Below, piece by piece: positions 13,956-49,800 of a stretch of DNA of 49,800 nucleotides. Position numbers and translations under genes: made by a program. This DNA comes from Candidatus Bipolaricaulota bacterium (GTDB lineage: Bacteria; Bipolaricaulota; Bipolaricaulia; UBA7950; UBA9294): assembly GCA_021159105.1 (NCBI GenBank), contig JAGGSM010000064.1, forward strand, positions 1 to 49,800, given 5' to 3'. The notes beneath the pieces are model-generated. The model saw nothing but the letters and a program-made list of their open reading frames with translations. It did no database searches and was not told where the DNA came from. Position 1 is the first letter of the stretch. Every line of letters starts with the position of its first letter.

Positions 13956-13964
13956 GAGAGAAGA

Positions 13965-35371: not shown

Positions 35372-37732
35372 CTACAGTTCCTCGTGAGCAGTGCGGGCAA
35401 TGATCTCGTCCTGCAGGCCCGGGCCGAGGTTGTTGAAGTAGTCGCTGTACCCAGCGACGCGTACGATCAGATCTCGATGCTCCTCCGGGTGAAGCTTGGC
35501 CTCGCGCAGCGTGTCAGCACCGACGACGTTGAACTGGATGTGGTGGCCATCGTAGCGGAAGTAGGTGCGAACGAGTGCCGCCAGCTTGTCGATCCCGGAG
35601 TCACCGGCGAGGACAGAGGGGAGAAACTTCTGGTTTAACAGCGTCCCGCCGGTACGGACGTGATCGATCTTCCCCATCGAGCGTACCACCGCGGTTGGGC
35701 CGTGCGTGTCCGCCCCTTGGCTTGGCGAGATCCCATCGGAGAGGGGCCTTCCCGCGATGCGCCCGTTCGCCGTCGCTCCTACCATCCTGCCGAAGTAGAT
35801 GTGGACCGTTGTCGGCAGGAGGTTCACCCGGTAGGAGCCGCCGTTTGTGTTCGGTCTACCGTCGATCGCTTCGAAGTAGGCGTCGAAAAGTTTGCGCGCA
35901 ATGTCGTCAGCGCGATCGTCGTCGTTTCCGAAGGCTGGCGATGCGGCGAGGCGCTTGCGCAGTCCCTCTTCGCCCTCGAAGTTGCTGTCGAGGACGCGTA
36001 CCAGATCGGGAAGCAAGATCCTTCCTTCATCAAAGACGTGGTATTTGATCGCTGACAGGGCGTCTGTCGTCGTCCCCAACCCGACCCCTTGAATGTAGGT
36101 CGTGGGATAGCGCGGTCCTCCGTCGTTGTAATCGCGTCCGCGCGCGATGCAATCATCGACGAGGAGCGATAGGAAGGGAGCGGGCATTTCCCCAGCGTAC
36201 AGCCGCTCTATGGTGTTGTTCCCGGCTATCTTCAGATCGACGAAGTACTGAAGCTGCCTGCGGTAGGCGGAGAACAGCTCATCGAAATCCTTAAACGTGC
36301 TTATGTCTCCGGTCTTGATCCCCACCATCTCTCCGGTGCGCGGATCGATCCCGTTGTGCAGCGTGATCTCCAGGATCTTCGGCCAGTTCATGTACCCGGT
36401 GAGGACGCAGCTCTCCTTGCCGAACGCGCTGATCGTCACGCACCCGCTCGGCCCGCCGTTTCGTGCGTCCTCGATGCTCTTTCCCGCGCGCAGGAATTCC
36501 TGCACGATGGCGTCGGTGTTGAAGATCGAGGGCTGACCGAAGCCCTTGCGTACGACGCGTAACGCTGATTTGAGGAAGCGGTTAGGGTTCTTCTTGCTCA
36601 GTTGGATGCAGGAGCCGCTGAACGGGAGGCGCATCTCGCTGATCACATCTAGTATAAGGTAGGAGACATCGTTCACCGCATCCTCGCCGTTTTCGGTCAG
36701 TCCACCGGCGTTCACGAGGACGAAGTCGTTGTACGTGGCGCTCTGCTCGACGGTAATCCCGACCTTAGGTGGGGCCGGCTGGTTGGAGAACTTAATCCAC
36801 AGGCACTCGAGCAGCTCCTTTGCCTGTTCGCGGGTGAGCGTCCCAGCAGCGATCTCGCGCTCGTAGAATGGATTTAGATGCTGATCGAGCCGCCCTGGGT
36901 TGAACGAATCCCAACTGTTCAGCTCGATCACCACCCCCAGGTGGACGAACCAGTACATCTGGATCGCCTCCCAGAAGCTGCGTGGAGCGTGCGCAGGTAC
37001 CCACAGGCATACTTCCGCTATCCTTTCCAGCTCCTCGCGCCGGTGGGGATCCTGTTCCCTTGTTGCCATCTCTCGGGCGAGATCGGCGTACCTGCGAGCG
37101 AGGTTGATCATCGCCTCGGCCGCGATCTTCATGGCGCGCAGCTCTTCGTCCTTGTCATAGGCGCGCGGATCGCTCTTCCAGTCTATTTGTGCGCGCACAC
37201 GCTTGATCTTATCGATGAAATCGAGCAGGCCGTGGTGATAGATCTTGTCGTCGAGTACGGCATGGCCAGGGGAGCGCTGTTCCATGAACTCGGTGAACAC
37301 CCCGGCATCGAACGCTTTGTGCCACTGCGGGCTCATTGCGGCAAACACCTTCTCTCGCATCGATCGCCCCTGCCAGAAAGGGATCACCTCTTCGGTCAAC
37401 GTTGTGAACGCGTCCTCGCTCACGGCAAACGGGGTGCGAGTGCGGGTGTCAAGCAAACGCAGATCTTCTGCGGAGTGGCTGCATAGTTCAGGGTAGGTCG
37501 GGGTCGCCTTGGGCGCTGGTCCGCGCTCCCCGACGATCAGCTCACCATCCCCGATGGAGATCGACTTGTTCGCCAGCAGGTATGAGAAGGCGAGCGCTCT
37601 TGTCACGGGAACAGAATGTCCCAATGCATCGGAACTGGAATAGAACTGGGTGATAAGGCTCGCCCGCTCGGCGCTCACCCGCGGGACGGCATCCCGACTC
37701 TCCTGCAACAACTGCTCGATACGCTCGTTCAT
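35372..37732 (-). CDS. glycyl-radical enzyme, PFL2/glycerol-dehydratase-like clade, unknown substrate
   Basis: 786 aa with C-terminal glycyl-radical motif VRVAGYSDYF. The Cys loop reads GGPSGCVTISAFG (Cys431; Thr433 where the dehydratase/lyase members have Glu). Confidence 0.9.
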   Translation of the reverse strand: MNERIEQLLQESRDAVPRVSAERASLITQFYSSSDALGHSVPVTRALAFSYLLANKSISIGDGELIVGERGPAPKATPTYPELCSHSAEDLRLLDTRTRTPFAVSEDAFTTLTEEVIPFWQGRSMREKVFAAMSPQWHKAFDAGVFTEFMEQRSPGHAVLDDKIYHHGLLDFIDKIKRVRAQIDWKSDPRAYDKDEELRAMKIAAEAMINLARRYADLAREMATREQDPHRREELERIAEVCLWVPAHAPRSFWEAIQMYWFVHLGVVIELNSWDSFNPGRLDQHLNPFYEREIAAGTLTREQAKELLECLWIKFSNQPAPPKVGITVEQSATYNDFVLVNAGGLTENGEDAVNDVSYLILDVISEMRLPFSGSCIQLSKKNPNRFLKSALRVVRKGFGQPSIFNTDAIVQEFLRAGKSIEDARNGGPSGCVTISAFGKESCVLTGYMNWPKILEITLHNGIDPRTGEMVGIKTGDISTFKDFDELFSAYRRQLQYFVDLKIAGNNTIERLYAGEMPAPFLSLLVDDCIARGRDYNDGGPRYPTTYIQGVGLGTTTDALSAIKYHVFDEGRILLPDLVRVLDSNFEGEEGLRKRLAASPAFGNDDDRADDIARKLFDAYFEAIDGRPNTNGGSYRVNLLPTTVHIYFGRMVGATANGRIAGRPLSDGISPSQGADTHGPTAVVRSMGKIDHVRTGGTLLNQKFLPSVLAGDSGIDKLAALVRTYFRYDGHHIQFNVVGADTLREAKLHPEEHRDLIVRVAGYSDYFNNLGPGLQDEIIARTAHEEL

Positions 37733-37735
37733 GCT

Positions 37736-38647
37736 CTAACCCCCTATTCGTACCGGGAGATCGATTCTCTCAGCGATGTAAGAAGCGGCTTCCTCTCCGG
37801 ACGGTTCTTCCGTCCGCGAAAAGTTGTACTCCCGCCCCAAGCGTGCGTATTTGCCCGCGCCGGCGCGATGATACGGCAGGACATTCACCCTTTCCACCGA
37901 CTTCAGGGATGTCACCAGAGCTATCAGATCCATGAGCGATCGCTCAACATCGTTCACCCCCGGTACGAGCGGGTACCTGATCCATATTCGCTTGCCCATC
38001 TCATCGATGCTGCGCAGATTGCGCAGGATGCTCCGGTTGGACACCCCTGTGTAGGCGATGTGAGCTGCGTCATCCAGCGTCTTGATATCGTACAGAAATA
38101 GATCGATCACATCAGCTACCTTCATCAGCTCCGCCTCGGGGGCAAACCCGCTCGTATCGAGCGCGGTGTGGATGTCCAACTCTACGCACCGGGCAGCTAC
38201 CGCGCGCACGAAGTCCGCCTGCATCAGCGGCTCCCCTCCGGAGAACGTCACTCCTCCGCCCGATTCCTCATAAAAGAGCGTATCCTTTACTATTTCTGAA
38301 ACGACCTGTTCGACGTTCATCTGTCGCCCGGTAAGCTCACGCGCGCCGTTTGGGCACACGGGGACACAATCGCCGCACCCGATGCAGAGGGATTGATCGA
38401 GCTGCAAGCGATCATCTACGATATCGAGTGCGCCCTGCTTGCAGGCAGACACGCATGCTCCGCACAGGGTGCAGCGCTCCTCGTAGTAGAGGATCTCCGG
38501 CCGCGCGCGCTGGCTCTCTGGATTGTGGCACCATTCACAGGAGAGGGGACAACCTTTTAGAAAGACTGTCGTGCGTATCCCCGGGCCGTCGTGGATCGCG
38601 TAGCGCTTTATGTCGAGGATTGTCCCCGTTCTCTCTTGTAGGCTCAC
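37736..38647 (-). CDS. glycyl-radical enzyme activating protein (radical SAM with two auxiliary ferredoxin-like clusters)
   Basis: CPLSCEWCHNP (CX3CX2C) plus CTLCGACVSAC and CIGCGDCVPVCP. Confidence 0.9.
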   Translation of the reverse strand: MSLQERTGTILDIKRYAIHDGPGIRTTVFLKGCPLSCEWCHNPESQRARPEILYYEERCTLCGACVSACKQGALDIVDDRLQLDQSLCIGCGDCVPVCPNGARELTGRQMNVEQVVSEIVKDTLFYEESGGGVTFSGGEPLMQADFVRAVAARCVELDIHTALDTSGFAPEAELMKVADVIDLFLYDIKTLDDAAHIAYTGVSNRSILRNLRSIDEMGKRIWIRYPLVPGVNDVERSLMDLIALVTSLKSVERVNVLPYHRAGAGKYARLGREYNFSRTEEPSGEEAASYIAERIDLPVRIGG

Positions 38648-38650
38648 TTT

Positions 38651-39100
38651 CTATTCGGTCGAGGCCTGTAGAGTTGCGCTCCAGCTAAATGTGTAGGCAG
38701 CACCGTCGTTGGTCTGCGTCCCCGTACCACTGAGCACATCGCCGTCACGCTTCCCTTCTAGGTCTATCTGCACATTAGCGTGCGGAGTGACGACGTCCAT
38801 CACACCGGAAGCATGGATGGTGAACTCTCCGTTTCCCGCGGTTCCATCGGTAATCGAAATCGAGAACGGCTTCGATCCCGGCCCCATCAGACCGATTTCG
38901 CCGGTGATCTCTGTCTTCTTCTCCTCCTGTACAAGCGTGAGGGTGATTGGCGAGGTGAAGGAAGTGGCCGGGCCGCTCGTCCAGGTGATGAACCCACTCC
39001 ACGTTCCAGCGACATAGATGATGCCAGGGCCGAAACAACCGCTCAAGCCGAGAATGCTAGTCAGCATTACAGCTACAGCAATCCATCCTCTCTTCTTCAT
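38651..39100 (-). CDS. hypothetical lipoprotein, first gene of the glycyl-radical enzyme operon
   Basis: GGAGGG RBS and ATG 39098-39100. MKKRGWIAVAVMLTSILGLSGC lipobox. The stop lies 3 nt from the activase start. Confidence 0.62.
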   Translation of the reverse strand: MKKRGWIAVAVMLTSILGLSGCFGPGIIYVAGTWSGFITWTSGPATSFTSPITLTLVQEEKKTEITGEIGLMGPGSKPFSISITDGTAGNGEFTIHASGVMDVVTPHANVQIDLEGKRDGDVLSGTGTQTNDGAAYTFSWSATLQASTE

Positions 39101-39123
39101 GATTGATCCCTCCATAAAGGATG

Positions 39124-39315: not shown

Positions 39316-39344
39316 GTCTAAAAACATCCGTTTCAAGGTATATT
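39316..39344 (+). promoter_or_regulatory. shared promoter-like motif, copy 1 (GTCTAAA-N16-TATATT)
   Basis: GTCTAAAAACATCCGTTTCAAGGTATATTATAGGTG. Near-identical to 40318-40346 and similar to 47216-47244 on the minus strand. Confidence 0.5.
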
Positions 39345-39486
39345 ATAGGTGTAGATCATTGACAAGTGAACCGAGAGGAAGATGGAAAGGAACCGAAGAC
39401 GGGGAACATCTGGGCCCCTCTTCAGATGACTATGAACAATACTTCAGCGGGCGGTCCGCTGAATGTAAGAAAATTCCTCATGAGAA

Positions 39487-39670
39487 GCATCTACTAAGAG
39501 CAAACCGCCCGAAAGGGCGGGACGCAAAGCTACGGACCTTCTGGACAACGCTCGCAAGGAGCATTGTGTAAAGGGCAAACCGGGAGCGATCCCGGGACGC
39601 AAAGCCACGGGTCTCATTGAGACAGCCGGGTTGCCGCAAGCAGTCTGATGGTGGCCGAGTTGCTGGATGC
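39487..39670 (+). promoter_or_regulatory. c-di-GMP-I (GEMM-I) riboswitch, outer aptamer of a nested tandem, copy 1
   Basis: 5' half GCAAACC-GCCC-GAAA-GGGC-GGGACGCAAAGCUACGGACC (39500-39538). 3' half GAUGGUGGCCGAGUUGCU (39647-39664). Closing helix GCAUCUA/UGGAUGC. Encloses the inner aptamer. Confidence 0.62.
39573..39635 (+). promoter_or_regulatory. c-di-GMP-I (GEMM-I) riboswitch, inner complete aptamer, copy 1
   Basis: GGGCAAACC GGGA-GCGA-UCCC GGGACGCAAAGCC ACGG GUCUC-AUU-GAGAC AGCCGGGUUGCC. Matches the GEMM-I core (GCAAAC, GNRA hairpin, GGACGCAAAGCC, GCCGGGUUnCC) as recalled from Vc2/RF01051. Confidence 0.85.
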
Positions 39671-39699
39671 ACTCAAGAAACCATTGGGAGGTGTTCTTA

Positions 39700-40161
39700 A
39701 TGAGGAGCAGTAGAGTGATGGTAGGCCTGTTGGTGTTGAGCTTGGTGGTTGGGATGATTGGACTGGCTGGTATTGCTAAGCCAGGGAAACCACTGCCGCT
39801 GGGCCCGCGCCCATTGCCGCCGGAGATGTCTAACAGCGTTACTGATATGGTTTCATGGACTGTTCAGGGGTTCATCGAACTGACGATCGATGATAGTGCG
39901 TTCGACTTTGGACTGATCGATGCTGGAGTTGACTCCGTGACCGTAGAAGAGGCGAACACACTGGCTGTCGTAAGCAACACGGAGTGGACGCTGAGCTACA
40001 CGATCACGGGAACTGGCAGCGATCACCTGGGGGTCCTGCTCTCTGACGAAGCAGGAGAAGGGAACGCCGAAATCAACGTCGGCTACAGCCTGAATGACCT
40101 CCGTTCGATGGACCCGGGTAGCTACACTGCTACGGTTACCTACACAGTAGCGGCCAAGTAA
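39700..40161 (+). CDS. small secreted beta-sandwich protein, WxL-like/pilin-like (paralog 1)
   Basis: 153 aa from ATG 39700 (GGGAGGTG, 6-nt spacer), plus a signal peptide. Motifs are IELTIDDSAFDFGLID, VVSNTEWTLSYT and C-terminal PGSYTATVTYTVAAK. Confidence 0.8.
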   Translation: MRSSRVMVGLLVLSLVVGMIGLAGIAKPGKPLPLGPRPLPPEMSNSVTDMVSWTVQGFIELTIDDSAFDFGLIDAGVDSVTVEEANTLAVVSNTEWTLSYTITGTGSDHLGVLLSDEAGEGNAEINVGYSLNDLRSMDPGSYTATVTYTVAAK

Positions 40162-40175
40162 GGGATGGGGATTGC

Positions 40176-40206
40176 AGCCTCGGGCCTCGTGAGTGGTCCC
40201 GAGGCT
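40176..40206 (+). terminator. hairpin terminator after paralog 1
   Basis: AGCCTCGGG (40176-40184) pairs with CCCGAGGCT (40198-40206) across a 13-nt loop, followed by TCTCTTGTG. Confidence 0.55.
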
Positions 40207-40317
40207 TCTCTTGTGCACTGAACTACCTGCCGCAAGCAAGCGGTGTATCGAGAGGCTTGCAAGAAGCACGCCTGCGGGATGGGCAGTGAAAATCCCAAGG
40301 GATTTCGTGTTCTTCAT

Positions 40318-40346
40318 GTCTAAAAGTATCCGTTTCAAGGTATACT
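40318..40346 (+). promoter_or_regulatory. shared promoter-like motif, copy 2 (GTCTAAA-N16-TATACT)
   Basis: GTCTAAAAGTATCCGTTTCAAGGTATACTATAAGTG. Same 23-nt register as copy 1. Confidence 0.5.
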
Positions 40347-40499
40347 ATAAGTGTAGGTCATTGACAAGTGAACCGAGAGGAAAAGGAAGATGGATTGTCG
40401 AAAGGCGAGCAGACTGAGAAGCAGCTCGCCTGACGGCATGAGAAGGATCGAAAGATTGCAGTGGACGGTCCACTGCAAGTACTAGATATCCTCGGAGAA

Positions 40500-40688
40500 G
40501 CATCTACTAAAAGCAAACCGCCTGAAAGGGTGGGACGCAAAGCTACGGACCTTCTAGACAACGCTCGCAAGGGCATTGTGTACAAGGGCAAACCGGGAGC
40601 GATCCCGGGACGCAAAGCCACGGGCCTCTTGTATCAGAGGCAGCCGGGTTGCCGCAGGCAGTCTAATGGTGGCCGAGTCGCTAGATGC
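40500..40688 (+). promoter_or_regulatory. c-di-GMP-I riboswitch, outer aptamer of nested tandem, copy 2
   Basis: GCAAACC-GCCU-GAAA-GGGU-GGGACGCAAAGCUACGGACC (40513-40551), then AAUGGUGGCCGAGUCGCU (40665-40682). Closing helix GCAUCUA/UAGAUGC is 7 Watson-Crick bp. Confidence 0.62.
40586..40653 (+). promoter_or_regulatory. c-di-GMP-I riboswitch, inner complete aptamer, copy 2
   Basis: GGGCAAACC GGGA-GCGA-UCCC GGGACGCAAAGCC ACGG GCCUCU-UGUAUC-AGAGGC AGCCGGGUUGCC. The distal P3 helix differs from copy 1 but stays complementary. Confidence 0.85.
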
Positions 40689-40717
40689 ACTCAAAAAACC
40701 ATTGGGAGGTGCTTTCA

Positions 40718-41158
40718 ATGAGGATAAACAAGTTTATGGTAGGCATGTTGGTGTTGGGTTTGGCAGTGAGCGTTCTAGGCGCAGTCGCTTTGGCGACGCC
40801 CGGACACGGGAATGGCTACCACGCTTCAGATACGGCAGTAGACAACGTCTCGTGGACGATCCAGGGGTTCATTGAACTCACGATCGATAACGGCGCGTTT
40901 GATTTTGGTGAGATCGCTGCCGGTGTGGACTCCGTGAGCGAAAGAAACGCGAATACGCTGCATGTATTCAGCAACACAGCGTGGAAGCTCTCTTACTCCG
41001 TAACTGGAGCAGGAAGCGATCACCTGAGTGTGGCCATGTCTTCAGACGAAGGTGAAGGTAACGACGACATAACCGTCGGCTACAGCTTGAATAACCTTCG
41101 AATGATGCATCCTGATACGTACACGGCAACAGTCGTCTACACCGTCGCTGCCAAGTGA
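40718..41158 (+). CDS. small secreted beta-sandwich protein, WxL-like/pilin-like (paralog 2)
   Basis: 146 aa from ATG 40718 (GGGAGGTG RBS), plus a signal peptide. Motifs are IELTIDNGAFDFGEIA, VFSNTAWKLSYS and PDTYTATVVYTVAAK. Confidence 0.8.
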   Translation: MRINKFMVGMLVLGLAVSVLGAVALATPGHGNGYHASDTAVDNVSWTIQGFIELTIDNGAFDFGEIAAGVDSVSERNANTLHVFSNTAWKLSYSVTGAGSDHLSVAMSSDEGEGNDDITVGYSLNNLRMMHPDTYTATVVYTVAAK

Positions 41159-41169
41159 TAACTAAACCG

Positions 41170-41197
41170 CCCGGGGACCGAGCAATCGGTCCCCGGG
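41170..41197 (+). terminator. hairpin terminator after paralog 2
   Basis: CCCGGGGACCGA-GCAA-TCGGTCCCCGGG, a 12-bp stem with a GNRA loop. The following T-tract is weak. Confidence 0.55.
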
Positions 41198-41447
41198 ACA
41201 TTCATTCTCGGTTCTCAGTCAACATGGTGAGCCCAGGAGCGCACAGCGGTGATACCAGTGGAGATCTATGTGCTATCAAGGAGTGCTCTGAAAAGAAGCA
41301 CCCGGCATCGGTTATCAAACCCCTCCTCCTGCAGTTATACTTCATACAGTCAGTGGTGCTTCCGCTGTAACGGTGCGTGTTCGCTGGCCTGTTAGAAGGT
41401 GGGTAGGAGTCAACATCACGTTCGAAGCGAAGTGGTGAGGAGGGGGG

Positions 41448-42512
41448 ATGATGCTAAGAGAGATGAGGTCTTCGGGCATTCACCTGATCGTTCTCTTCGT
41501 TATCGTGATCCTCTCGGTCAGCCTCCTGCAGGTCATCGGAGAGGCGGTGGTTATATCGAAGAGCCTCCTGCGCTTTGATGCTCAACCGGGGGCCAATGAG
41601 GAGACCCTGCTTACGGTTGAGAACAACGAGGGAAGCGACATCCGTGTCAGGGTCCGACTCATCGACTGGGATGATACCCCGGATGGGCGAACTCTCCTCT
41701 TTTCTCCGGATACCATTGAACGCTCCTGTTCCTCCTGGATAGAGTATGCTCCGCAGGCGTTCAATCTGCGCCCTGGACAGAAGCAGGAGGTACACGTGAC
41801 GATCCGTGTCCCCTCTTCAGCCGTGGGAACGTACTGGGCGGCTCTGCTCGTTGATAAGCCCGCCCAGCCAGACGCCCCGCCCGAGGGCGGGATTCGCGCC
41901 AAGACCCAGTTCTTGATAAAGATCTATCAGACATCCCTTCCAGCATCAACCACCGGGAAGATAGCAAGCGTTGTTGTCCGTGGGCTGGATCCGCTCTGGG
42001 TGACACTTCAGTTCGCCAACACAGGAGAGACCCTGATGGAGGACGTCAGCGCCACGGCTACTCTGCAGGATCGCACCGGACAGACGCTTGGTGAGCTCTC
42101 ATCTGATCCATTTTCCGTCCTGCCGGGCCACACGGTGGATGTTGCATTGGCAAGTTCACTTTACATGCAGGTTCCGGGAGTGTACCTCGTCACAGCGGTC
42201 GCCGACTATGGGGCCGATTACCTCGTTGCCGGCCAGGTCGCTCTGCGGATAAAGCAACTATCTCTCTCACCGATAGGGGGAAGCCTCAACACTCCAACAG
42301 ACCTCGATGGAGATGGCCTGTATGAAGACATAGACGGCGATGGAAGGCTCACGGAAGCGGACCTGTCTCTGTACACGAGCAACCTCGATGATAGGTGCAT
42401 AACGCGAAACAAACGCGCGTTTGACTATGACAACGACGGCGAGATAACACAGGACGATGTGGGCCTGTTACAGGCAATGCTATCACGCCAACAGGAGCGC
42501 GCCGGAAGGTGA
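41448..42512 (+). CDS. secreted two-Ig-domain, chaperone-like protein (DUF916/DUF3324-like) with C-terminal dockerin-type repeats
   Basis: Signal/TM segment. LLRFDAQPGANEETLLTVENNEGSDIRVRVRLIDW... is followed by a second beta domain. The C-terminus (nt about 42300-42485) has DLDGDGLYEDIDGDGRLTEADLSLY and DYDNDGEITQDDVGLLQAML, a duplicated Ca-binding loop plus helix as in type-I dockerins. Confidence 0.72.
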   Translation: MMLREMRSSGIHLIVLFVIVILSVSLLQVIGEAVVISKSLLRFDAQPGANEETLLTVENNEGSDIRVRVRLIDWDDTPDGRTLLFSPDTIERSCSSWIEYAPQAFNLRPGQKQEVHVTIRVPSSAVGTYWAALLVDKPAQPDAPPEGGIRAKTQFLIKIYQTSLPASTTGKIASVVVRGLDPLWVTLQFANTGETLMEDVSATATLQDRTGQTLGELSSDPFSVLPGHTVDVALASSLYMQVPGVYLVTAVADYGADYLVAGQVALRIKQLSLSPIGGSLNTPTDLDGDGLYEDIDGDGRLTEADLSLYTSNLDDRCITRNKRAFDYDNDGEITQDDVGLLQAMLSRQQERAGR

Positions 42513-42632
42513 CACGCTCGCTGGCTTGCAATCCGCAGTAACATCGACCCAATCACGTCCCACTTCCCGCGCTCACAGAGCTACCACGCCCCTCGAAGGT
42601 GCAGGGTGAGCTGTGGCACGGCCCATCTGTGA

Positions 42633-43958
42633 TCAACCCGGATCATCTTCGCCAGCAGGCTGTATGCTGCTCAGGATATCCTTCAAACTAGGTGCTTCCT
42701 GCCCATTCCAACCGTCAGCTCTGACAGATATGGTGAAGTCAAGGCCCATCTCCGCATTGAGATTGGCCACTTGATCGCTCAGTCGCTTTGAGGCCACCTG
42801 TGCTCCGGCAAGCGGTGTCTCCGGCAGCAGCGCCACGAACCGTTGCTCGCTCACACGAAATACTGGATCAACCGATCGGAGCTTCGCAATGAGGAGGTTC
42901 GCTGTCGCCTGCAGGAGACGTTTCTTATTCTCTTCAGAGGTTCCCTCGCCCGGAGATATGTCTACGATCAGGACCGAAGTTGGATGCCCGTAGCGTGCTC
43001 CCTTCTTCAACTCCTGATCAAGGAGCCTTTGGAAGTAGGAGAACGTGTAAGTGCCCGTCTCTTCGTCGAGCATAACTACGTCCCGCAGTGCCTGTTCGCG
43101 CGATCCGATCACCTTTATCATCAGGTTGAAGACATCGATGAACCGCGCCATCTCGTCACGTACCTTCAGCCCTGCTTGCCTGACCGGCCCAGTCGATACC
43201 TGCACACCGTAGTTCCTCTGTGAGACACTCTCCGCCGCTGCTGCCAGCCTAAGGATCGGCCGGGTGACGATGAGGCTCACGATCCCGTAGATGAGGAAGC
43301 CGAGAACGAGGAATCCGATAACAGATGCCAGCCCAAGCTCTAGTGAGAGGTGATTGACGTAGCGTTGCTGTTCGGCAAGGGACATGTCCACCGAGACTAC
43401 CCCGACCAGATCTGCATCCATGAATAGAGGATAGTCTGCGCGCAGGTATGCTTCTCCCCCTACCCGAACCTGCCTTACCCGCACATCCCGCAGGGCGAGC
43501 AAGGCGCCCTGCGCTTCTTGTGAAAGGATCTTGCCAATCAGTGACGAGTCCGTGCTAGCGACAACTCGCAGCCCCCTGCCGGTCACTCCGCTGACCGTTA
43601 TGCCGACGATAGAGTCGTATCGTGTCATCAGGGTATTGATGTCTTGTTCCAGTTGGTCGGAGTAGTACAGTATATATGCCTTCTCCTGAAGCGACTTGGA
43701 GACGACGCTTGCCACGCTGCGGGCACGCTGCTCGTAGATCCCAGCGATGGTGGTGTGAAGCGATGTGAGCGACAACCAGGCTAGGATGCCGATAACTGAG
43801 AGTGTGATCACGAAGACAGGAACAAGAATCTTGATCTTCAGGGGGGATCGATAGTAGATGTTCGATGACAGGGTCATCAAGCCTCTCTTCAACCGGTGCT
43901 TGATCCTTGCCAGGTATCCCTGCTCTTCCGCTCTCTTGTCCTCAACATTCTCGGACAT
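42633..43958 (-). CDS. membrane sensor protein: extracytoplasmic domain, HAMP, degenerate GGDEF domain with intact RxxD I-site
   Basis: Two TM segments flank a domain of about 150 aa, followed by HAMP-like RPILRLAAAAESVSQ...FIDVFNLMI. The GGDEF position reads SEQRF, and RSVD lies exactly 5 residues upstream (KLRSVDPVFRVSEQRF, nt 42837-42878). DxLT...NRR is replaced by DEETGTYTFSYF. Start at ATG 43956-43958 behind GGAGGG. Confidence 0.8.
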   Translation of the reverse strand: MSENVEDKRAEEQGYLARIKHRLKRGLMTLSSNIYYRSPLKIKILVPVFVITLSVIGILAWLSLTSLHTTIAGIYEQRARSVASVVSKSLQEKAYILYYSDQLEQDINTLMTRYDSIVGITVSGVTGRGLRVVASTDSSLIGKILSQEAQGALLALRDVRVRQVRVGGEAYLRADYPLFMDADLVGVVSVDMSLAEQQRYVNHLSLELGLASVIGFLVLGFLIYGIVSLIVTRPILRLAAAAESVSQRNYGVQVSTGPVRQAGLKVRDEMARFIDVFNLMIKVIGSREQALRDVVMLDEETGTYTFSYFQRLLDQELKKGARYGHPTSVLIVDISPGEGTSEENKKRLLQATANLLIAKLRSVDPVFRVSEQRFVALLPETPLAGAQVASKRLSDQVANLNAEMGLDFTISVRADGWNGQEAPSLKDILSSIQPAGEDDPG

Positions 43959-43972
43959 TGCTACCAACCCTC

Positions 43973-46450
43973 CTATTGAGCCATCAATCCTTGCTGCACC
44001 ATGAACTGCCTGGCAGCCGCCGCTGGATCGCTGTGTAATAACCGTACCCTACTTACCAGGGAATGTACATTATCCGATGTGAGAAGGGGGCGAAGCTCCT
44101 CTTCAATAGCTCGCACTCCAGGGTGTGCATCGATCACGCTCTGGCGCGTGAAGAAGGTTATCTGCCGGGCAGTCAATGCTCCCTGATCATCGTTGAGTGC
44201 CTGGTATCCCACAATCGTAACTGCCTCTTGCAAGCTATGTACAATCGCTGCATCGACTGTCCCCAACTTCAGTGCGGTCTCTGACTCATCGATCCCGTTG
44301 GTCCAGACTACGTTATCCTCTTCGAGTGTTATCCCATATGTCGATGCGAGTGCTGCAACGCTGGCATGAGGGATCTCCCGCTCTACAGCTAGCTTCACGC
44401 TTCTCTGATCACCTGTGAGGTAGATGGCCAGGTTGGAGATTGTCGTTCCAGATAGATGGGTAGCTATCTCCGGGGATACGACAAGCAGGAGCGTATCTTC
44501 TGCTGGAAGAAGGCTGGAGGCGCTTATCCCTGTGTCCGATAGCTCTTTCACATCGAACAGATCGGCCTTCCCAACAGCGACATCGATATCGCCAGCGATG
44601 AGGGCATCCTTCACCTGTTCCTCGCTTTCGAGTCCGATTAGGTCGATCACTCTCATCCCCTCACTCGTTAATCCGAGCTGGAGGAGGCGAGCGATCATGA
44701 CTTGGTCGAGGGAGCTCGTTGCACCGAGGGCAACCGATGCCTTCCAAGACGACCTGGGGAGCACGACCTGGCCTACAATGCGGGAAGGGTCCTCTTCTTC
44801 TGCGCCGTTCCAGTAGTTTCCTTCCGCATAGATTGTCCTATCCGATGAGTTTGATATGTCGTATCTCTTGTTGCCGGAGAAGGAGTTCTTAGCTAGCGTA
44901 AGGGAGAAGCCCTGTTCCGCCCCGGCCAGAAGTTCGGAGTCGCTTCCTCGCAAGATCGTCTCTTGCTTGTCCAGTTTTGAGGAGATCTCCAGCCCAGTGG
45001 AGTTGTATGAGATAGTATTGCCTTCAAGCCTTGTGCCGGTCCCGGACTCGAACAGCCTTAGGGCAATCTCGCTGTGGCTGATGCGGTTGTCCAGAAGTGC
45101 GGTCTGTGATGAAGAGGCGATCAGTACTCCGACCTTGTTGTCCTTGAGAGTGTTGTCTTGAATGTGATTCTTGTCGGCATGATTGAGCAGACACAAGCCC
45201 TGTTCCGAGCTATTGGTCATGCTATTGCGCAGCAGTTGGTTATCGCTTGCTCCAATCAATGCCACTGCGTATGCGCTCCCAGCAGTGACATTGTCGAGGA
45301 GCAGATTCCGCGACCCGGCTGACAAGACAATTCCCGCCAGTGCGTTCTCCTTAAGCGAGTTGCGTAATACCCTATTTCTCGCACCTTCCAGGATCTGGAG
45401 CCCGATCGCGTTCTTCTCCAGGTCATTGGCAAGGATCAGGCTCGACTTAACCCCTTCCAGTGTGAGGGCTGTGCCTTGGCACGTGCTGACGAAGTTGTGC
45501 GTAATGCTGTTATCTTGGCACGCAGAGAGCGAAATCCCATCCCTGAGGCCGTCTTGCACGCTGTTTTCGGATATGGCGTTCTGTGGTGACTTGTACAGTG
45601 AGATCGCGTACTTGGCGCTCCTCCTGATTGAGTTATGCTCTATCCTGTTGTTGGAGGCAGTGTTCAGCAGAATGCCGGTTGCGCAGTCGGTGAACCTGCC
45701 CCCTGTAATGAGGTTCGAAGAGGAACTAAGAATCTCCAGACCGATTTCGCTGCAACTGATCGCGGTAAGCGTGGCGATCTCGTTCTCTTGTGAATCGTCT
45801 TCGATCGAGACTCCGACCCCAACCCCGTCCACGCTGATATCCTCGATCGTGTTGGACCAGGCGGAGGAGAGACGTACGCCAACTGCCGCGTCCTTTCCGA
45901 TGTGGATTTGCTGCAGCCTGTTTCGATTGGCGCTCATCATCTCTATTCCCGTCTTGCATCCGCCGATGACGATCGAGGTGATCACGCTACCGTTGGATTC
46001 GCTCGCCTGTATCCCGACGCGCGCTCCTTCGATAACAAGATCATCAAGACTGGCATTGACTGAGTGCAGCAATTGCACCCCGATGCCGTCTGCTTCGATC
46101 CTGAAACCACGTAACTCGATCCCCGTGGCATGAATTGTCACTGCCGGCTCACCGGTGGGACAGACAATCTTGGCTCGCCCGCCGGACGATATGATCGTTA
46201 CATTTGAAGCATCGATATGAATTGGCCCTTCGTACGGACCGCCTCTCGCTTGAACGACAATCGTCGAACCACCGGCGACTTGATCCAGAGCCGCTTGGAT
46301 CGTCGGGTAGTCCCTCGGCACGACTATCTGTGAAGAAGGAGCAGGTCTACTGACCAAGAAAAACCATGTAAGGGCGCAGGCCGCAAGGACTGCTACTCCT
46401 CCAATTCCCAGCACAAAGTGCCAACTTCCAGGCAGTTTCCTTGACCTCAT
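43973..46450 (-). CDS. membrane-anchored parallel beta-helix (NosD/PbH1-like) repeat protein fused to a C-terminal OpuAC-like solute-binding domain
   Basis: 825 aa with an N-terminal TM segment. About 20 repeats of roughly 22 aa (N..I..N.I....GI.L) span residues about 45-545. The last 255 aa or so (nt 43976 to about 44749) resemble glycine-betaine-type periplasmic binding domains (ALIAGDIDVAVG..., TVDAAIVHS...). Confidence 0.78.
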   Translation of the reverse strand: MRSRKLPGSWHFVLGIGGVAVLAACALTWFFLVSRPAPSSQIVVPRDYPTIQAALDQVAGGSTIVVQARGGPYEGPIHIDASNVTIISSGGRAKIVCPTGEPAVTIHATGIELRGFRIEADGIGVQLLHSVNASLDDLVIEGARVGIQASESNGSVITSIVIGGCKTGIEMMSANRNRLQQIHIGKDAAVGVRLSSAWSNTIEDISVDGVGVGVSIEDDSQENEIATLTAISCSEIGLEILSSSSNLITGGRFTDCATGILLNTASNNRIEHNSIRRSAKYAISLYKSPQNAISENSVQDGLRDGISLSACQDNSITHNFVSTCQGTALTLEGVKSSLILANDLEKNAIGLQILEGARNRVLRNSLKENALAGIVLSAGSRNLLLDNVTAGSAYAVALIGASDNQLLRNSMTNSSEQGLCLLNHADKNHIQDNTLKDNKVGVLIASSSQTALLDNRISHSEIALRLFESGTGTRLEGNTISYNSTGLEISSKLDKQETILRGSDSELLAGAEQGFSLTLAKNSFSGNKRYDISNSSDRTIYAEGNYWNGAEEEDPSRIVGQVVLPRSSWKASVALGATSSLDQVMIARLLQLGLTSEGMRVIDLIGLESEEQVKDALIAGDIDVAVGKADLFDVKELSDTGISASSLLPAEDTLLLVVSPEIATHLSGTTISNLAIYLTGDQRSVKLAVEREIPHASVAALASTYGITLEEDNVVWTNGIDESETALKLGTVDAAIVHSLQEAVTIVGYQALNDDQGALTARQITFFTRQSVIDAHPGVRAIEEELRPLLTSDNVHSLVSRVRLLHSDPAAAARQFMVQQGLMAQ

Positions 46451-46555
46451 GATCAGATGATAGCGATTGGTTACGACAAAGTGAAGGCCTCCCCATCATG
46501 TTCACAGGAGGTAGACGGGGAGGCCGGGAGCGTCAACGACGCATGGTTCTGGTCA

Positions 46556-47116
46556 TTACTTGGGCATCACCGTGTACACAACCTCAAGGCCATAGCTACC
46601 GGGCCGGTAGTCACTTCCGAGCAATATGCGGTGGTCAACACCGATGTCGAAGCTTCCCCGATTCCCACTTGCCAGTATCTGAGGTGTGTTGCTGATTGGG
46701 AAATACTCCCCTCCATGTTCGCGCAGCAGAAAGTCTGAGATTGGCTTTGTGAACGTTCTATCATCGCTCTGTCCCATATCAGTCTCATCTGTCCACACCT
46801 GGACCTTCCACGGGATATTGCTGTTTACGGTGAGGTCGACCGAGTTCATCTCCTCTATGTACCCCCGTTGAAGATCGTAATCTTCTGGCTGGGGCATCAC
46901 ATAATCGGCTGTCACCGAAGGCCCGTGCGTCCCGGAGCCGGCGATTCGCAGTTCTTGATACGGAAGAACGGTCCAGCTCATGTGCACAGTAACGGAGCTC
47001 TGAGTGGCTAACACCAGCCCGACAGCGGACACAGTAGCAATGCAGGCGAGAGCGACCATTGCCCCCCTCCTGTGCCCTTTGATCCACGCCCCGAATCTGG
47101 GAAAAACTCGTTTCAT
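46556..47116 (-). CDS. small secreted beta-sandwich protein, WxL-like/pilin-like (paralog 5)
   Basis: 186 aa from ATG 47114-47116 (AGAGGTG RBS), plus a signal peptide. Motifs are VNSNIPWKVQVW and C-terminal PGSYGLEVVYTVMPK. Confidence 0.7.
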   Translation of the reverse strand: MKRVFPRFGAWIKGHRRGAMVALACIATVSAVGLVLATQSSVTVHMSWTVLPYQELRIAGSGTHGPSVTADYVMPQPEDYDLQRGYIEEMNSVDLTVNSNIPWKVQVWTDETDMGQSDDRTFTKPISDFLLREHGGEYFPISNTPQILASGNRGSFDIGVDHRILLGSDYRPGSYGLEVVYTVMPK

Positions 47117-47215
47117 CATCATCACCTCTAACGCGTAGCCGCATAAACAAGCTACCGATGATACATCTATCATTCTACTGAGAAGCTTCGCTCCTCGCCA
47201 ATCGCTGACAATTAT

Positions 47216-47244
47216 ATTATACCTTGCACGCACATTCTTTAGAC
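47216..47244 (-). promoter_or_regulatory. shared promoter-like motif, copy on minus strand (GTCTAAA-N16-TATAAT)
   Basis: Minus strand reads GTCTAAAGAATGTGCGTGCAAGGTATAATATAATTG. Same 23-nt register as copies 1 and 2. No riboswitch lies between it and the 47116 start. Confidence 0.5.
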
Positions 47245-47379
47245 AACGAGCTTGCGCAAGTCGCCAGACAGTCTTCTCAGGGACCCTAGCCGGTCTATAC
47301 GCGATAGGCGTAAAGGAAAGTGAAACACTGATCTGGTCGGTGATGGGGTGAGATTATTGTGTCTCGTTTCCTCGCGGTC

Positions 47380-47407
47380 TTGACATGGCGCGCATGAGAA
47401 GTATAAT
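47380..47407 (+). promoter_or_regulatory. near-consensus sigma70-type promoter of the third riboswitch unit
   Basis: TTGACA (47380-47385), 16-nt spacer, TATAAT (47402-47407), followed by the same TATAGGTGTA as copy 1. Confidence 0.65.
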
Positions 47408-47502
47408 ATAGGTGTAAAAAGTGGCAGATGGTAAAAATAAGGGAGGTGGTAGGTGGAGTGAAGATTATGTAAACTGTACGAAGTAGTATGTTGCCTCTCA
47501 CA

Positions 47503-47676
47503 AGCATTGAAGGGCAACCCGCACGAAAGGGCGGGGCGCAAAGCTACGGCCTGCAAAGGTATGGACGAAAGGGCAAACCGGGAGCGATCCCGGGGCGCAA
47601 AGCCTTGAGTCTTCTTTTATTAGAAGATCGTCAGGCTGCCGTGGCGTACCTAATGGTGGCAGAGCTACAAGATGCT
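47503..47676 (+). promoter_or_regulatory. c-di-GMP-I riboswitch, outer aptamer of nested tandem, copy 3 (divergent)
   Basis: GGGCAACCC-GCAC-GAAA-GGGC-GGGGCGCAAAGCUACGGCC (47511-47551), then AAUGGUGGCAGAGCUAC (47652-47668). Closing helix is AGCAUU/GAUGCU. Confidence 0.55.
47571..47640 (+). promoter_or_regulatory. c-di-GMP-I riboswitch, inner complete aptamer, copy 3
   Basis: GGGCAAACC GGGA-GCGA-UCCC GGGGCGCAAAGCC UUGA GUCUUCU-UUUAUU-AGAAGAU CGUCAGGCUGCC. Confidence 0.8.
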
Positions 47677-47708
47677 CATGAAATAAAGACCATTAGGAGG
47701 TGCTTAAC

Positions 47709-48206
47709 ATGAAGAGGCTTTTTATATCGATTTTGGTAGTAGCGGTGGCAGTGAGTGTGGGTGTTGCGGTTTGGGCCAGCAATCCACAGGATGTACGGGT
47801 GAACTGGCACACCAATAGTTGGATTATCCTCTACGTGCCCGACCAGAGTATCGAGCTGGGTACGATTGACGGTAGCCAGTACAATCCGGCGAGCGAGACC
47901 TGGACGCCGATTACCGATGGGAGCGATCACAGCGCGTACGTGATAACGAACAACGCCGCTGGCTTCACGCTTTCGGTGTCTGCCGCAAACGCTGCTGGGT
48001 ATGTAGCAGCTGATCTGTCTCGTTTCCAGATGGTTGGTGGGAATCTCGGAACGTGGACTGGTAACCTCAATAACACTCAGATCCTGAGCGGTTCGAGTGT
48101 TGGTGTCGGGAGAGCAACCAACATCAACTACCAGTACGTTCCAAGCTGGGACGATGCTGCTGGTGACTATCGCGTGATCGTCACCTACACGGCGACCGCA
48201 CAATAG
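47709..48206 (+). CDS. small secreted beta-sandwich protein, WxL-like/pilin-like (paralog 3)
   Basis: 165 aa from ATG 47709 (AGGAGGTG, 6-nt spacer), plus a signal peptide. Motifs are SIELGTIDGSQY, ITNNAAGFTLSVS and AGDYRVIVTYTATAQ. Confidence 0.78.
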   Translation: MKRLFISILVVAVAVSVGVAVWASNPQDVRVNWHTNSWIILYVPDQSIELGTIDGSQYNPASETWTPITDGSDHSAYVITNNAAGFTLSVSAANAAGYVAADLSRFQMVGGNLGTWTGNLNNTQILSGSSVGVGRATNINYQYVPSWDDAAGDYRVIVTYTATAQ

Positions 48207-48232
48207 GATATCACGGATGGAGCGGTCAAGTT

Positions 48233-49195
48233 ATGGCCGCTCCACATTCCAAAATGTCCATCAAAGCTGTTCTTCTTTTCCTTCTCGTCTTCCTTCTGGC
48301 CAGTCTGGGCGCCATCGCCAAAACGAGCTGCAACAGTTGGTGGACGGACGAAACCTGCCTCACCGTGCATCCTGATGTCGATCTGGGGACCATCGACTCA
48401 TCCCTTTTTCATGGTGCCACACCCGAAGGGAGCGGCGCATTACAGCCGCTCACGGCGCTGGACAACGCAATTGACATTACGCGCAATGGTTGGGCGAGCC
48501 TGAACTGGACCCTTGAGGTCAAGGCGGCATCGAGCTTGGGGGTGGCCCTTTCGCGCCTGCACTGGAGACACAGTGGAACAGGAGAAGGATACCTGCCGTT
48601 CTCATCGCTCGGCGCTTGGACGCAAGTGGCGACTGGGAGGGGGTCGGCATCTGTCCCAGTGGACTATGAGTACTTGCCGACAACTGCGGATGCTCCTGGG
48701 AACCATCAAGTTACCCTCACCTATCGTGTCACGATCTCATGGGGATCCTATGAGTTGTATTCTGTCAGTGAGGACACGGTGTTGTTCCTCAATGCACGTG
48801 ACTGGATTGTCCTTGCCATTAACGATCGCATCGATCTTGGCACGATCGATGGCGCCGGTTATGTGATGGGAAGGGGGCTTCCGGCGCGTGACAGTGTTGG
48901 CAATGGCATGTTCATCGTCAGCAATTTGACTACGGGCTGGGATGTCACGCTTCAGGTAGGATCGCTATCAACCCCACCGTGCTACAGAGGGGATCTGTTG
49001 AGAGTCTTCTTCTGGCAGATAGACGGCTCGACGTTCCGTTCGGCGAGCGGGCTGCAGGCGCAGCCCATCACTGTGGCTTCAAGCAGTGCGCCAGGGAAGG
49101 TGCAGCACACGCTCGGCTACCGCTACACTCCAACGACTGCTGAATGCGGAGGAGATTATTCCATATCTTTGATCTACACGGCAACGCCGCGCTAG
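48233..49195 (+). CDS. secreted protein with two tandem copies of the same WxL-like/pilin-like domain (paralog 4)
   Basis: 320 aa with a signal peptide. Domain 1 has DVDLGTIDSSLF, LNWTLEVK and PGNHQVTLTYRVTIS. Domain 2 has RIDLGTIDGAGY, TTGWDVTLQV and GGDYSISLIYTATPR. Confidence 0.75.
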   Translation: MAAPHSKMSIKAVLLFLLVFLLASLGAIAKTSCNSWWTDETCLTVHPDVDLGTIDSSLFHGATPEGSGALQPLTALDNAIDITRNGWASLNWTLEVKAASSLGVALSRLHWRHSGTGEGYLPFSSLGAWTQVATGRGSASVPVDYEYLPTTADAPGNHQVTLTYRVTISWGSYELYSVSEDTVLFLNARDWIVLAINDRIDLGTIDGAGYVMGRGLPARDSVGNGMFIVSNLTTGWDVTLQVGSLSTPPCYRGDLLRVFFWQIDGSTFRSASGLQAQPITVASSSAPGKVQHTLGYRYTPTTAECGGDYSISLIYTATPR

Positions 49196-49248
49196 CGTGC
49201 TTGCATTTGCTTGGTCACATCTGGCAGAATAGCTGTGAGGAGGGACAG

Positions 49249-49800
49249 ATGAGATCGGCAAGATTCTTCTTTCTTATTGCAGCGGTCATCGTTGGTGTCA
49301 GCGTGAACTGCCTTGCGCTCCAGATTACGCAGATCGAGTTTGATCTGCACATGCCTCCAGGATCTGCGGACACGTACACGTTTCAGGTGATCAACAATGA
49401 GGCAGACTCCCAGGATGTGACGGTGTACATCGGGGACTGGACGCGAACGGAGAGCGGCGAGAACGATTTTCTCTCCCTTGACAGTGCCCGCTGGCTCTTT
49501 GCGCGCAAGTTCAAGGCAGGGGATGAGTTGGACATCCAGTATCGTGCTACCCTGCCCAGGGATGGCATCACCGTGAATGGGACATATGCAACGGGAAGCC
49601 CCGCTGCGCAGGGGGAGATTGTTGGTGAAAGTAACCTCCTCGTGGTTGGAGCGCAGACCCCGGTTGAACCGACTGATGGGGTGGTCGCCATCACCCGCAC
49701 CGTCGTCTCCGTGGGGGACGGTGGAGCAGTCACTGTCGATCTGCACGTGCATGCGCTGCAGGACTTCGGAGGCTTACGCATCGACGAGACATTCTCCTTG
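49249..49800 (+). CDS. secreted chaperone-like Ig-domain protein, paralog of the 41448 gene (partial; runs off the right edge)
   Basis: Not in the ORF track (no stop). GAGGAGGG RBS and ATG 49249. Hand translation gives MRSARFFFLIAAVIVGVSVNCLALQITQIEFDLHMPPGSADTYTFQVINNEADSQDVTVYIGDWTRTESGENDF..., open through 49800. The N-terminal block aligns with LLRFDAQPGANEETLLTVENNEGSDIRVRVRLIDWDDTPDG of the 41448 protein. Confidence 0.7.
   Translation, partial: MRSARFFFLIAAVIVGVSVNCLALQITQIEFDLHMPPGSADTYTFQVINNEADSQDVTVYIGDWTRTESGENDFLSLDSARWLFARKFKAGDELDIQYRATLPRDGITVNGTYATGSPAAQGEIVGESNLLVVGAQTPVEPTDGVVAITRTVVSVGDGGAVTVDLHVHALQDFGGLRIDETFSL

Follow-up and report, generated by a model that had tools for sequence, protein, structure and literature searches.

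A candidate cell-surface module of small secreted beta-sandwich proteins and WxLIP-like partners behind c-di-GMP riboswitches in Bipolaricaulota

No member of the Bipolaricaulota (Acetothermia, OP1) has been cultured, and next to nothing is known of the surface of their cells. A contig of a Candidatus Bipolaricaulota bacterium (JAGGSM010000064.1, assembly GCA_021159105.1), whose positions 1 to 49,800 were analysed as a whole and are called the window, ends in an island of genes for small secreted proteins and cyclic di-GMP (c-di-GMP) riboswitches. Which kind of system does this island encode? An initial annotation, made from the sequence alone, had read it as a surface-fibre system of WxL-like or pilin-like proteins with chaperone-like partners. 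The island spans 39.3-49.8 kb and differs in GC content from the rest of the contig (~54 % versus ~59 %); its genes are named A to I in the order of their positions (Table 1), and the contig end cuts gene I. Protein A is 100 % identical to the NCBI entry with the locus tag J7J63_02060. The open reading frames (ORFs) were found as annotated, only the start of gene F was placed near 47122 (MMMKR, preceded by GAGGTG) and not at 47233. Our analysis indicates that the island probably encodes a cell-surface adhesion or biofilm system, composed of a small protein family without Pfam or NCBIfam model, of partner proteins with two immunoglobulin (Ig)-like domains, and of c-di-GMP-I riboswitches in the leaders of three small genes.

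Judged by sequence comparison, the five genes A, B, F, G and H encode six copies of one secreted beta-sandwich domain, as the initial annotation had claimed. G aligned to each half of H with 28 % identity (E 3e-14 and 4e-12), and A matched F and H, more weakly than it matched B. A profile-profile comparison of 33 A-type with 17 G-type sequences extended over the full length (probability 96 %, E 1.5e-9), and a hidden Markov model (HMM) of the six window domains after trimming (alignment A4) recovered exactly these five genes in the window, H in two stretches. The predicted signal peptides were judged by eye rather than by a predictor: all five N-termini combine charged residues with a hydrophobic stretch and an A-x-A-type site and resemble Sec signals. 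Three shared motifs had been proposed, at an N-terminal strand, around a Trp and at the C-terminus. All are visible in alignment A4, with the exceptions that G misses the Trp of motif 2 and F misses motif 1. The strongest signature is motif 3, PG-x-Y-x-x-T-x-x-Y-T-x-T, located 2-4 residues from the C-terminus, and an N-terminal V-x-W segment ranks with the best-conserved positions of the superfamily. Close homologues of A fell into 71 clusters and those of G into 19 clusters, all unannotated and without a Pfam domain. Among 1.84 billion proteins the six-domain HMM detected 199 representatives at 50 % identity (E ≤ 1e-3), nearly all of them secreted, 140-200 amino acids (aa) long and with the same C-terminal strand; forms with two or three domains occur as well. 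A number of giant proteins, 2,000-5,500 aa long (P0126, P0130, P0135, P0172, P0203, P0250, P0255), were set aside as repeat noise. Their matches, 11-21 per protein, are confined to the last 40-50 positions of the profile, which could reflect a repeat built on the C-terminal strand motif or low-complexity noise. A weak solitary match on a Bacteroidota-like contig (L066; L numbers denote loci in other genomes) was treated as a distant or doubtful member.

The proposed kinship of the small domain to WxL or spore-coat-U proteins was not borne out. WxL domains carry two Trp-x-Leu motifs within 160-190 aa (PMC13522541, PMC10599100). In the window copies, of 110-150 aa domain length, the proximal W-x-L is present in A (WTL), B (WKL) and the first domain of H (WTL), altered in the second domain of H and in F, and absent in G; the distal Trp-x-Leu is replaced by Y-T-V/A in all copies. 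None of the five window proteins matched WxL (PF13731) at E ≤ 1, and a comparison of 124 family members with Pfam gave no WxL, no SCPU and no other recurrent family, even at this permissive threshold. NCBIfam gave nothing for the small proteins. Isolated sub-threshold matches to DUF4402 (A, E 0.0033), a CBM13-like family (B) and ComJ noise did not recur and were rejected, as was an S-layer fragment (E 0.03) in searches of the A-family and six-domain profiles against PDB sequences, which returned nothing meaningful.

The predicted structure of A points weakly towards fibre subunits. The AlphaFold model has a seven-strand beta-sandwich core with a predicted local distance difference test score (pLDDT) >90 from residue 51; the N-terminal segment is confidently placed in the monomer and is not a DSSP strand. 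Among the best 50 of 753 Foldseek matches, nearly all structures from the PDB belong to donor-strand fibre subunits: TLP-1a/b, CfaB, the PapG pilin domain, Caf1, CsuE, FimA and TasA. The statistics of these matches are weak (E 1e-3 to 6e-2, TM score about 0.4-0.5), with TLP-1a on top and TasA at E 0.043.

Genes C and I encode the partners. The initial annotation had compared them with the DUF916/DUF3324 proteins of WxL loci; this comparison gained support from the fold and from near-threshold DUF916 matches of relatives, not from DUF3324. The AlphaFold model of C (pLDDT 87.4) shows an N-terminal helix, two Ig-like domains and a helical C-terminal module in this order, and a long hairpin at residues 127-163 with a tip of low confidence. 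Its three best PDB matches are Enterococcus faecium WxLIP structures, 9i25_C (E 7e-14) and 9i1y_A/B (E 1e-12), with target-normalised TM scores of 0.51-0.53; entry 9i25 is a WxLIP bound to a long WxL protein. The chaperones CfaA, CsuC, Caf1M and FimC of chaperone-usher systems follow with E values of 7e-10 to 1e-7. C itself has no DUF916 (PF06030) match in Pfam. Among eight relatives of C and I, six match PF06030 (WxLIP_PGBD) below threshold (E 1.3e-5 to 0.1), the best with 25.7 bits versus a cut-off of 27.3, and four of the six matches lie where expected, at the N-terminus, and cover the greater part of the profile. For PapD_N a single sub-threshold match (E 1e-3) was obtained, in a relative from L065. 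PF11797 (DUF3324 / HBD) was not matched by C, I or the eight relatives at E ≤ 1. A search of the C profile against PDB sequences returned dockerins and EF-hands only and no WxLIP; the link to WxLIP therefore rests on the fold and the weak PF06030 matches.

The C-terminal module of C was correctly recognised as a dockerin in the place of a transmembrane anchor. It scored above threshold for Dockerin_1 (PF00404; 25.3 bits versus a cut-off of 22.9), matched the CelS dockerin (E 7e-6), and by its duplicated calcium-binding loops DLDGDG/DIDGDG and DYDNDG is a genuine type I dockerin. I is of the same type as C: with an orthologue from L005 that is full-length, the C profile aligned at a probability of 99.5 %. 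This orthologue ends right after the second Ig domain, and the full-length orthologues of I carry neither a dockerin nor a transmembrane helix. The dockerin-like module of C also matches the C-termini of many large haloarchaeal and methanogen proteins (L033-L064; Haloarcula, Halorubrum, Methanoculleus, Methanospirillum and others), often several in a row. Direct Pfam scans covered the island genes and 20 upstream ORFs, that is most of the larger ORFs of the window; most of the remaining ORFs were covered by precomputed Pfam lists of a syntenic relative, and a few upstream ORFs were not scanned directly. In these scans and lists no usher, sortase, LPXTG protein or cohesin was found, and Pfam showed no Peptidase_M73 signature or dedicated signal peptidase, in agreement with the initial statement that an LPXTG protein, a sortase, an usher and a SipW-like peptidase are missing.

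Three of the five small genes had been placed directly behind c-di-GMP riboswitches, and Rfam located aptamers ahead of three of them, A, B and G. All three exceed the gathering score (60.6-72.7 bits; clan CL00126) and lie 55-65 nt ahead of the genes. The best-scoring model was RF03167 (c-di-GMP-I-GGC). According to the Rfam alignments the consensus of this model reads ACGC-G-AA, whereas the window aptamers read ACGC-A-AAG. The canonical A at the intercalating, variant-defining position, which we take to be the equivalent of A47 in Vc2 aptamer numbering, was present in all 55 aptamer cores from the window and 34 related loci. A GGC variant with an altered ligand was rejected, since all 55 cores have A and not G, which leaves no grounds for assuming that the ligand differs from c-di-GMP. 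Judged by this base, the RF03167 label reflects overall similarity and is uninformative on ligand specificity. As far as can be told from the sequence, the aptamers would bind c-di-GMP and control the gene that follows.

In leaders A, B and G a shorter element lies 5' of the full aptamer; its P1a hairpin is intact, its P1b mostly missing or divergent, and relatives have equivalent elements. At the position that corresponds to G20, leaders A and B have A and some orthologous leaders have G. The minimum free energy fold of leader A, in which a stem after the first unit closes over the entire second aptamer, may indicate that the two units are nested and not simply in tandem. Single Rfam matches in relatives span 130-165 nt, compared with a model of 80-87 nt.

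The three window leaders are homologous over their full length (83 % column identity), including the 60 nt from aptamer to start codon. In this platform the helix UCUGAUGGU / ACCAUUGGG is conserved and covers the 5' part of the Shine-Dalgarno sequence GGGAGG. RNAalifold predicted 21 pairs for 13 leaders from four genomes, with a conserved 9-bp helix on the first Shine-Dalgarno bases and a pairing of the remaining ones with the 3' strand of the aptamer; sequence changes were mostly one-sided with pairing kept, and one pair showed a compensatory change. No terminator was found 3' of the window aptamers, and an intrinsic-terminator platform was rejected for this reason. Because ligand-induced folding of the aptamer would remove the predicted Shine-Dalgarno pairing, the leaders most likely act on translation, as ON switches. 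A perfect sigma-70 consensus promoter lies in the divergent intergenic region of F and G, ~100 nt upstream of the G leader.

Is the linkage of small genes, partners and riboswitches conserved? The neighbourhood survey proposed in the initial annotation bore it out. In a scan for the C family, with one genome per species of the GTDB taxonomy, 25 loci with a full-length C homologue were obtained; a small-family ORF adjoins C in 20 of them and a c-di-GMP-I aptamer is present in 18. In this conserved linkage a dockerin is a frequent C-terminus of the two-Ig proteins. Most of the 25 loci carry the label Bipolaricaulota or Acetothermia; several are assigned to 'uncultured Thermotogae', and Fraserbacteria and Atribacteria account for one each. 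The label 'uncultured Thermotogae bacterium' looks inconsistent on metagenome-assembled genomes (MAGs) with near-identical or syntenic islands (L009-L013, L028, L031, L033, L035). Seen from the riboswitches, 34 of 41 full aptamers in 29 loci are directly upstream of a small-family ORF, and three of the seven exceptions precede a secreted protein of 147-148 aa whose orthologues are weak family members. L005 and L009 are syntenic with the window island; L009 has full synteny with 67 % identity for C and ~79 % for the homologue of A. Two further metagenome assemblies, L007 and the low-GC L065, hold the same three-part module in other orders. L007 has an aptamer, an F-type small protein, a sigma factor, a 112-aa protein and a C homologue with dockerin; the latter is 35 % identical to C (hhalign probability 100 %), the small protein ~25 % identical to A. 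In L065 the order is a GAF-GGDEF gene, an F-type gene behind two aptamers, two G-type genes behind one aptamer each and a dockerin-bearing C homologue; genes for a PKD-dockerin protein and for a multi-Ig protein of 971 aa follow. The precomputed annotations of the related loci examined contained no usher.

Further genes accompany the module in some relatives. Factors of the sigma-70 family lie inside or beside it in two unrelated loci (L003 8904-9551, L007 8673-9443). Multi-Ig proteins of 950-970 aa with SdrD_B, PKD, NPCBM_assoc and SpaA-like domains follow the C- or I-type gene in several loci (L003 12728-15637, L018 9060-11930, L065 7589-end); in WxL clusters, the long adhesin members could correspond to them. 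Aptamers also precede two unrelated secreted proteins, one of over 445 aa with Ig or cadherin-like repeats (aptamer at L056 1336-1426, minus strand) and one of 395 aa (aptamer at L024 2092-2181, plus strand), which suggests a wider riboswitch regulon of surface proteins.

Between C and G, on the opposite strand, lies the block of F, E and D. The putative c-di-GMP receptor that the initial annotation had suspected in the island would be D. Pfam detected GGDEF (E 3.8e-8), sCache_3_2 and HAMP; the sequence RSVD is followed after 5 residues by SEQRF, and among eight orthologues the RxxD motif is invariant and the GGDEF site variable. A function of D as membrane c-di-GMP receptor is plausible from this pattern, which is that of I-site receptors such as PelD; the domain layout recalls LapD. 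E matched Beta_helix (5e-45), NosD (5e-43) and OpuAC (9e-13). D, E and F co-occur in seven related loci. The order in L010, L011, L012, L015 and L056 is C, F-type, E-type, D-type and an S8 subtilase with an Ig-like domain; in L009 and L013 the F-E-D block is inverted, as in the window. A secreted S8 subtilase adjoins the D-type receptor in seven related loci (among them L010, L011, L012, e.g. 13295-14734 in the latter, L013, L015 and L056), not in the window, and its N-terminal Ig-like domain is similar to the second domain of C. By analogy, the subtilase together with the LapD-like layout of D suggests a protease-controlled release of surface proteins.

Table 1 Features of the island and its upstream border, by position in the window
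Feature	Position	Strand	Description
Lipoprotein	38651..39115	-	154 aa, LSGC lipobox; divergent from A; no Pfam match
Short aptamer-like element, leader A	39489..39545	+	RF01051, 37.1 bits versus gathering score 35
c-di-GMP-I aptamer, leader A	39565..39639	+	RF03167, 72.7 bits, E 4.5e-16
Expression platform, leader A	39640..39699	+	conserved helix over 5' part of Shine-Dalgarno sequence
A	39700..40161	+	small secreted beta-sandwich protein, 153 aa
Short aptamer-like element, leader B	40502..40558	+	RF01051, 34 bits, E 0.0012, just under gathering score
c-di-GMP-I aptamer, leader B	40578..40657	+	63.6 bits, E 1.9e-13
B	40718..41158	+	paralogue of A, 58 % identity, 146 aa
C	41448..42512	+	N-terminal signal/anchor helix, two Ig-like domains, C-terminal type I dockerin (292-345)
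D	42633..43967	-	transmembrane helix, sCache, transmembrane helix, HAMP, degenerate GGDEF (SEQRF) with RxxD I-site
E	43973..46450	-	signal-anchored right-handed beta-helix (NosD-like), C-terminal OpuAC-like binding domain
F	46556..47122	-	distinct small-family subtype, PISDF motif; HMM E 1e-50
Sigma-70 consensus promoter	47380..47407	+	TTGACA, 16 nt, TATAAT; 12/12 matches
Short aptamer-like element, leader G	47504..47559	+	26.9 bits, E 0.0066, under gathering score
c-di-GMP-I aptamer, leader G	47563..47644	+	60.6 bits, E 1.4e-12
G	47709..48206	+	small-family member, 165 aa
H	48233..49195	+	two tandem small-family domains, residues ~30-169 and 170-320
I (partial)	49249..49800	+	C-like two-Ig-domain protein, ~115-aa insertion in first domain

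We read the island as a c-di-GMP-gated cell-surface module in which the partners hold the small subunits by strand complementation and tether them to the envelope, a tentative interpretation with not quite an even chance of being correct. Binding of c-di-GMP to the leader aptamers would allow the synthesis of A, B, G and H, as the 3' strand of the bound aptamer would no longer help to mask the ribosome-binding site; F would be made from its own operon. The small subunits would be exported via Sec and held outside the membrane by C and I in the manner of WxLIP or PapD, with a strand of the long beta-hairpin completing or extending the sandwich of the subunit. The calcium-binding dockerin of C would then fix the complex to the envelope. 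D, whose sCache domain would face outwards and whose degenerate GGDEF domain with the RxxD site would lie in the cytoplasm, may add a second c-di-GMP input at the protein level, acting with E. The outcome would be an adhesive or aggregative surface layer, possibly oligomeric. Several findings weigh against this interpretation. The small family has no detectable sequence relation to WxL, and no WxL chain, including that of 9i25, is among the best 50 of the 753 structural matches of A. No cohesin for the dockerin was found in the window or in the conserved neighbours, and partners of the I type are without any anchor. The ON direction depends on a predicted alternative pairing with little true covariation, and gene F has no riboswitch in the window.

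Instead of being held by the partners, the subunits might polymerise head to tail via the V-x-W strand into a true donor-strand-exchange fibre without usher, as in the usher-free TasA fibres or archaeal bundling pili; C and I would then do no more than chaperone the subunits transiently or anchor the base. This is possible, if on the unlikely side. The structural neighbours of A, the conservation of the V-x-W segment and the additional matches of C to CsuC, CfaA, Caf1M and FimC speak for it, as do the several paralogues and tandem- or triple-domain forms, which resemble major and minor pilins; TLP-1 fibrils use an inserted N-terminal donor strand for their assembly (PMC11494351). However, the Foldseek matches of A are weak, its N-terminal segment is confidently placed in the monomer model and not free, and a stable dockerin anchor on C would be unusual for a transient chaperone. 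An elaborated version, a chaperone/subunit strand-exchange fibre independent of an usher, with dockerin-tethered WxLIP/PapD-like handlers, tandem riboswitch-ON control and a release or retention governed by D as a LapD-like inside-out receptor, together with the subtilase or E, we consider doubtful. Such a fibre system would range widely over the Bipolaricaulota and include the single Fraserbacteria- and Atribacteria-labelled MAGs, L007 and L065. The matrix might also be centred on an exopolysaccharide that E modifies or binds under control of a PelD- or LapD-like D, the small proteins and C being carbohydrate-binding matrix proteins independent of strand complementation. The NosD/Beta_helix repeats of E are typical of sugar-active proteins and are joined to a binding domain, the degenerate GGDEF and RxxD of D are an arrangement known from PelD, F-E-D is a conserved operon, and small-family members gave weak CBM-like and GH123_N-type matches (CBM, carbohydrate-binding module). 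But these carbohydrate-type matches are single and sub-threshold, neither the island nor its conserved neighbours encode a glycosyltransferase or polysaccharide export gene, and in many loci E and D are missing although the riboswitch, the small genes and C are there. Finally, the small proteins and C/I might be functionally independent envelope proteins, for example associated with an S-layer, and linked by shared regulation only; the unrelated secreted proteins behind aptamers in L024 and L056 fit this view. Against it, the adjacency of C and small genes persists across gene orders. Because this adjacency survives at 25-35 % protein identity, the polysaccharide and the co-regulation explanation are the less likely ones, and we regard both as improbable. 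Of these readings, the module of subunits held by strand-complementing partners is the one that we rate highest, not far ahead of the donor-strand fibre.

With which known systems can such a module be compared? By architecture the closest ones are the Firmicute WxL/WxLIP clusters (Csc; Enterococcus, Listeria, Lactiplantibacillus), by the fold of the partner the chaperone-subunit pairs of chaperone-usher pili. The island departs from both: the WxL signature, the distal Trp-x-Leu, DUF3324 and the transmembrane anchor of the former were not found, nor was the usher of the latter. Common to WxL clusters and the island are several small secreted beta-sandwich proteins, as single-domain and longer forms, beside a two-Ig protein of ~350 aa. 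A WxL cluster consists of at least one WxLIP and at least two WxL genes in adjacency (PMC10599100); the window and 20 of the 25 related loci have an analogous layout, C or I together with at least two small proteins, which are not demonstrable WxL proteins. The WxLIP hairpin strand was predicted by AlphaFold modelling to fill a gap in the WxL sandwich (PMC10599100), and C, structurally nearest to the solved WxLIP, has a comparable long hairpin. Firmicute WxLIP are anchored via a C-terminal transmembrane helix (PMC10599100), whereas C ends in a dockerin and I in nothing. Cyclic-dinucleotide control is also shared: the WxL genes of L. plantarum are controlled by c-di-AMP through a repressor (PMC13522541), here the control would be by c-di-GMP riboswitches. 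Further differences are the small domain without WxL signature, the lack of an LPXTG protein and the hosts, Bipolaricaulota and a few other uncultured lineages in place of Firmicutes. The term 'WxL-like' is thus supported for the partner proteins and not for the small domain.

Chaperone-usher pili of the archaic (Csu) and alternate (CFA/I) types resemble the island in the fold of their chaperones and in having multiple paralogous small Ig-like subunits, with pilins as the structural neighbours of the small proteins. They differ from it by the usher, which was found in none of the loci, by PapD and fimbrial Pfam matches, which were not obtained above threshold, and by a partner without dockerin. 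The usher-free fibres of TasA in Bacillus, of archaeal bundling pili and of TLP-1 are similarly built from secreted beta-sandwich subunits with a conserved N-terminal strand, and a role in the biofilm matrix is plausible on this comparison; TLP-1a is the top structural neighbour of A, and TasA is among the neighbours. A SipW-type peptidase, TapA and a Peptidase_M73 signature, the companions of TasA-type fibres, were not found here; a chaperone-like partner is present here and absent from TasA, archaeal bundling pili and TLP-1.

Adhesins and pili under c-di-GMP riboswitch control occur in Clostridioides difficile (CD2831, pilA1) and Bacillus thuringiensis (cap gene, tandem riboswitches). The aptamers are likewise of the GEMM type, often in tandem and directly upstream of surface adhesin or pilin genes; the targets there are sortase-anchored collagen-binding proteins or type IV pilins, in contrast to an unannotated family with WxLIP-like partners here. 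With LapD, D shares the succession of transmembrane helix, outward sensor domain, transmembrane helix, HAMP and degenerate GGDEF, and with PelD the RxxD site. Unlike in LapD/LapG, D has no EAL domain, and the protease is a subtilase instead of a LapG-type cysteine protease and is absent from the window. Literature searches yielded no paper linking Bipolaricaulota or Acetothermia to c-di-GMP or riboswitches and none of relevance on DUF4402, and in the literature searched no description of the module as such was found. The small family, the dockerin or missing anchor on the partners, the riboswitch control and the hosts are apparently new, in line with the impression of novelty in the initial annotation.

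The scanned part of the contig upstream of the island holds housekeeping and metabolic genes: an FtsY-type GTPase of the signal recognition particle pathway, arginyl-tRNA synthetase (ArgRS), GyrA, tyrosyl-tRNA synthetase (TyrRS), an oligopeptide ABC transporter, an aldehyde:ferredoxin oxidoreductase, a glycyl-radical enzyme with activase and several ORFs without Pfam match. This glycyl-radical enzyme, which is PFL-like and 786 aa long, is encoded together with the radical-SAM activase (35372-38647, minus strand) immediately upstream of the island; the pair is syntenic in L005 and is not at the equivalent position in L001 and L002. The ORFs 602-1624 (340 aa), 4582-6402 (606 aa) and 15217-15870 (217 aa) had no Pfam match at E ≤ 1e-5, the first two none at E ≤ 0.01 either, and ORF 19917-20741 has a chagasin-type (I42) peptidase-inhibitor domain. 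The lipoprotein gene at the upstream border has orthologues in the same divergent position beside A-type genes in L001, L002, L005, L006 and L009 and may be an accessory component of the system. A GC-rich hairpin (41170-41197) follows B.

The findings define a protein family with 199 representatives for which neither Pfam nor NCBIfam holds a model, and they give many orphan c-di-GMP riboswitches of these lineages a consistent target; the 'GGC variant' label of Rfam can mislead on the ligand specificity of such aptamers. WxLIP-type proteins are extended well beyond the Firmicutes and stand structurally beside the chaperones of chaperone-usher systems, which hints, on the basis of predicted folds, at a common principle of strand complementation across very different cell envelopes. 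Should the fibre-system reading be true, the island would be an evolutionary bridge between the WxL/WxLIP complexes of Firmicutes and the chaperone-usher pili of Gram-negative bacteria. For the Bipolaricaulota, the module that we favour would, if true, be the first candidate apparatus for adhesion or biofilm formation, and one with a clear regulatory input.

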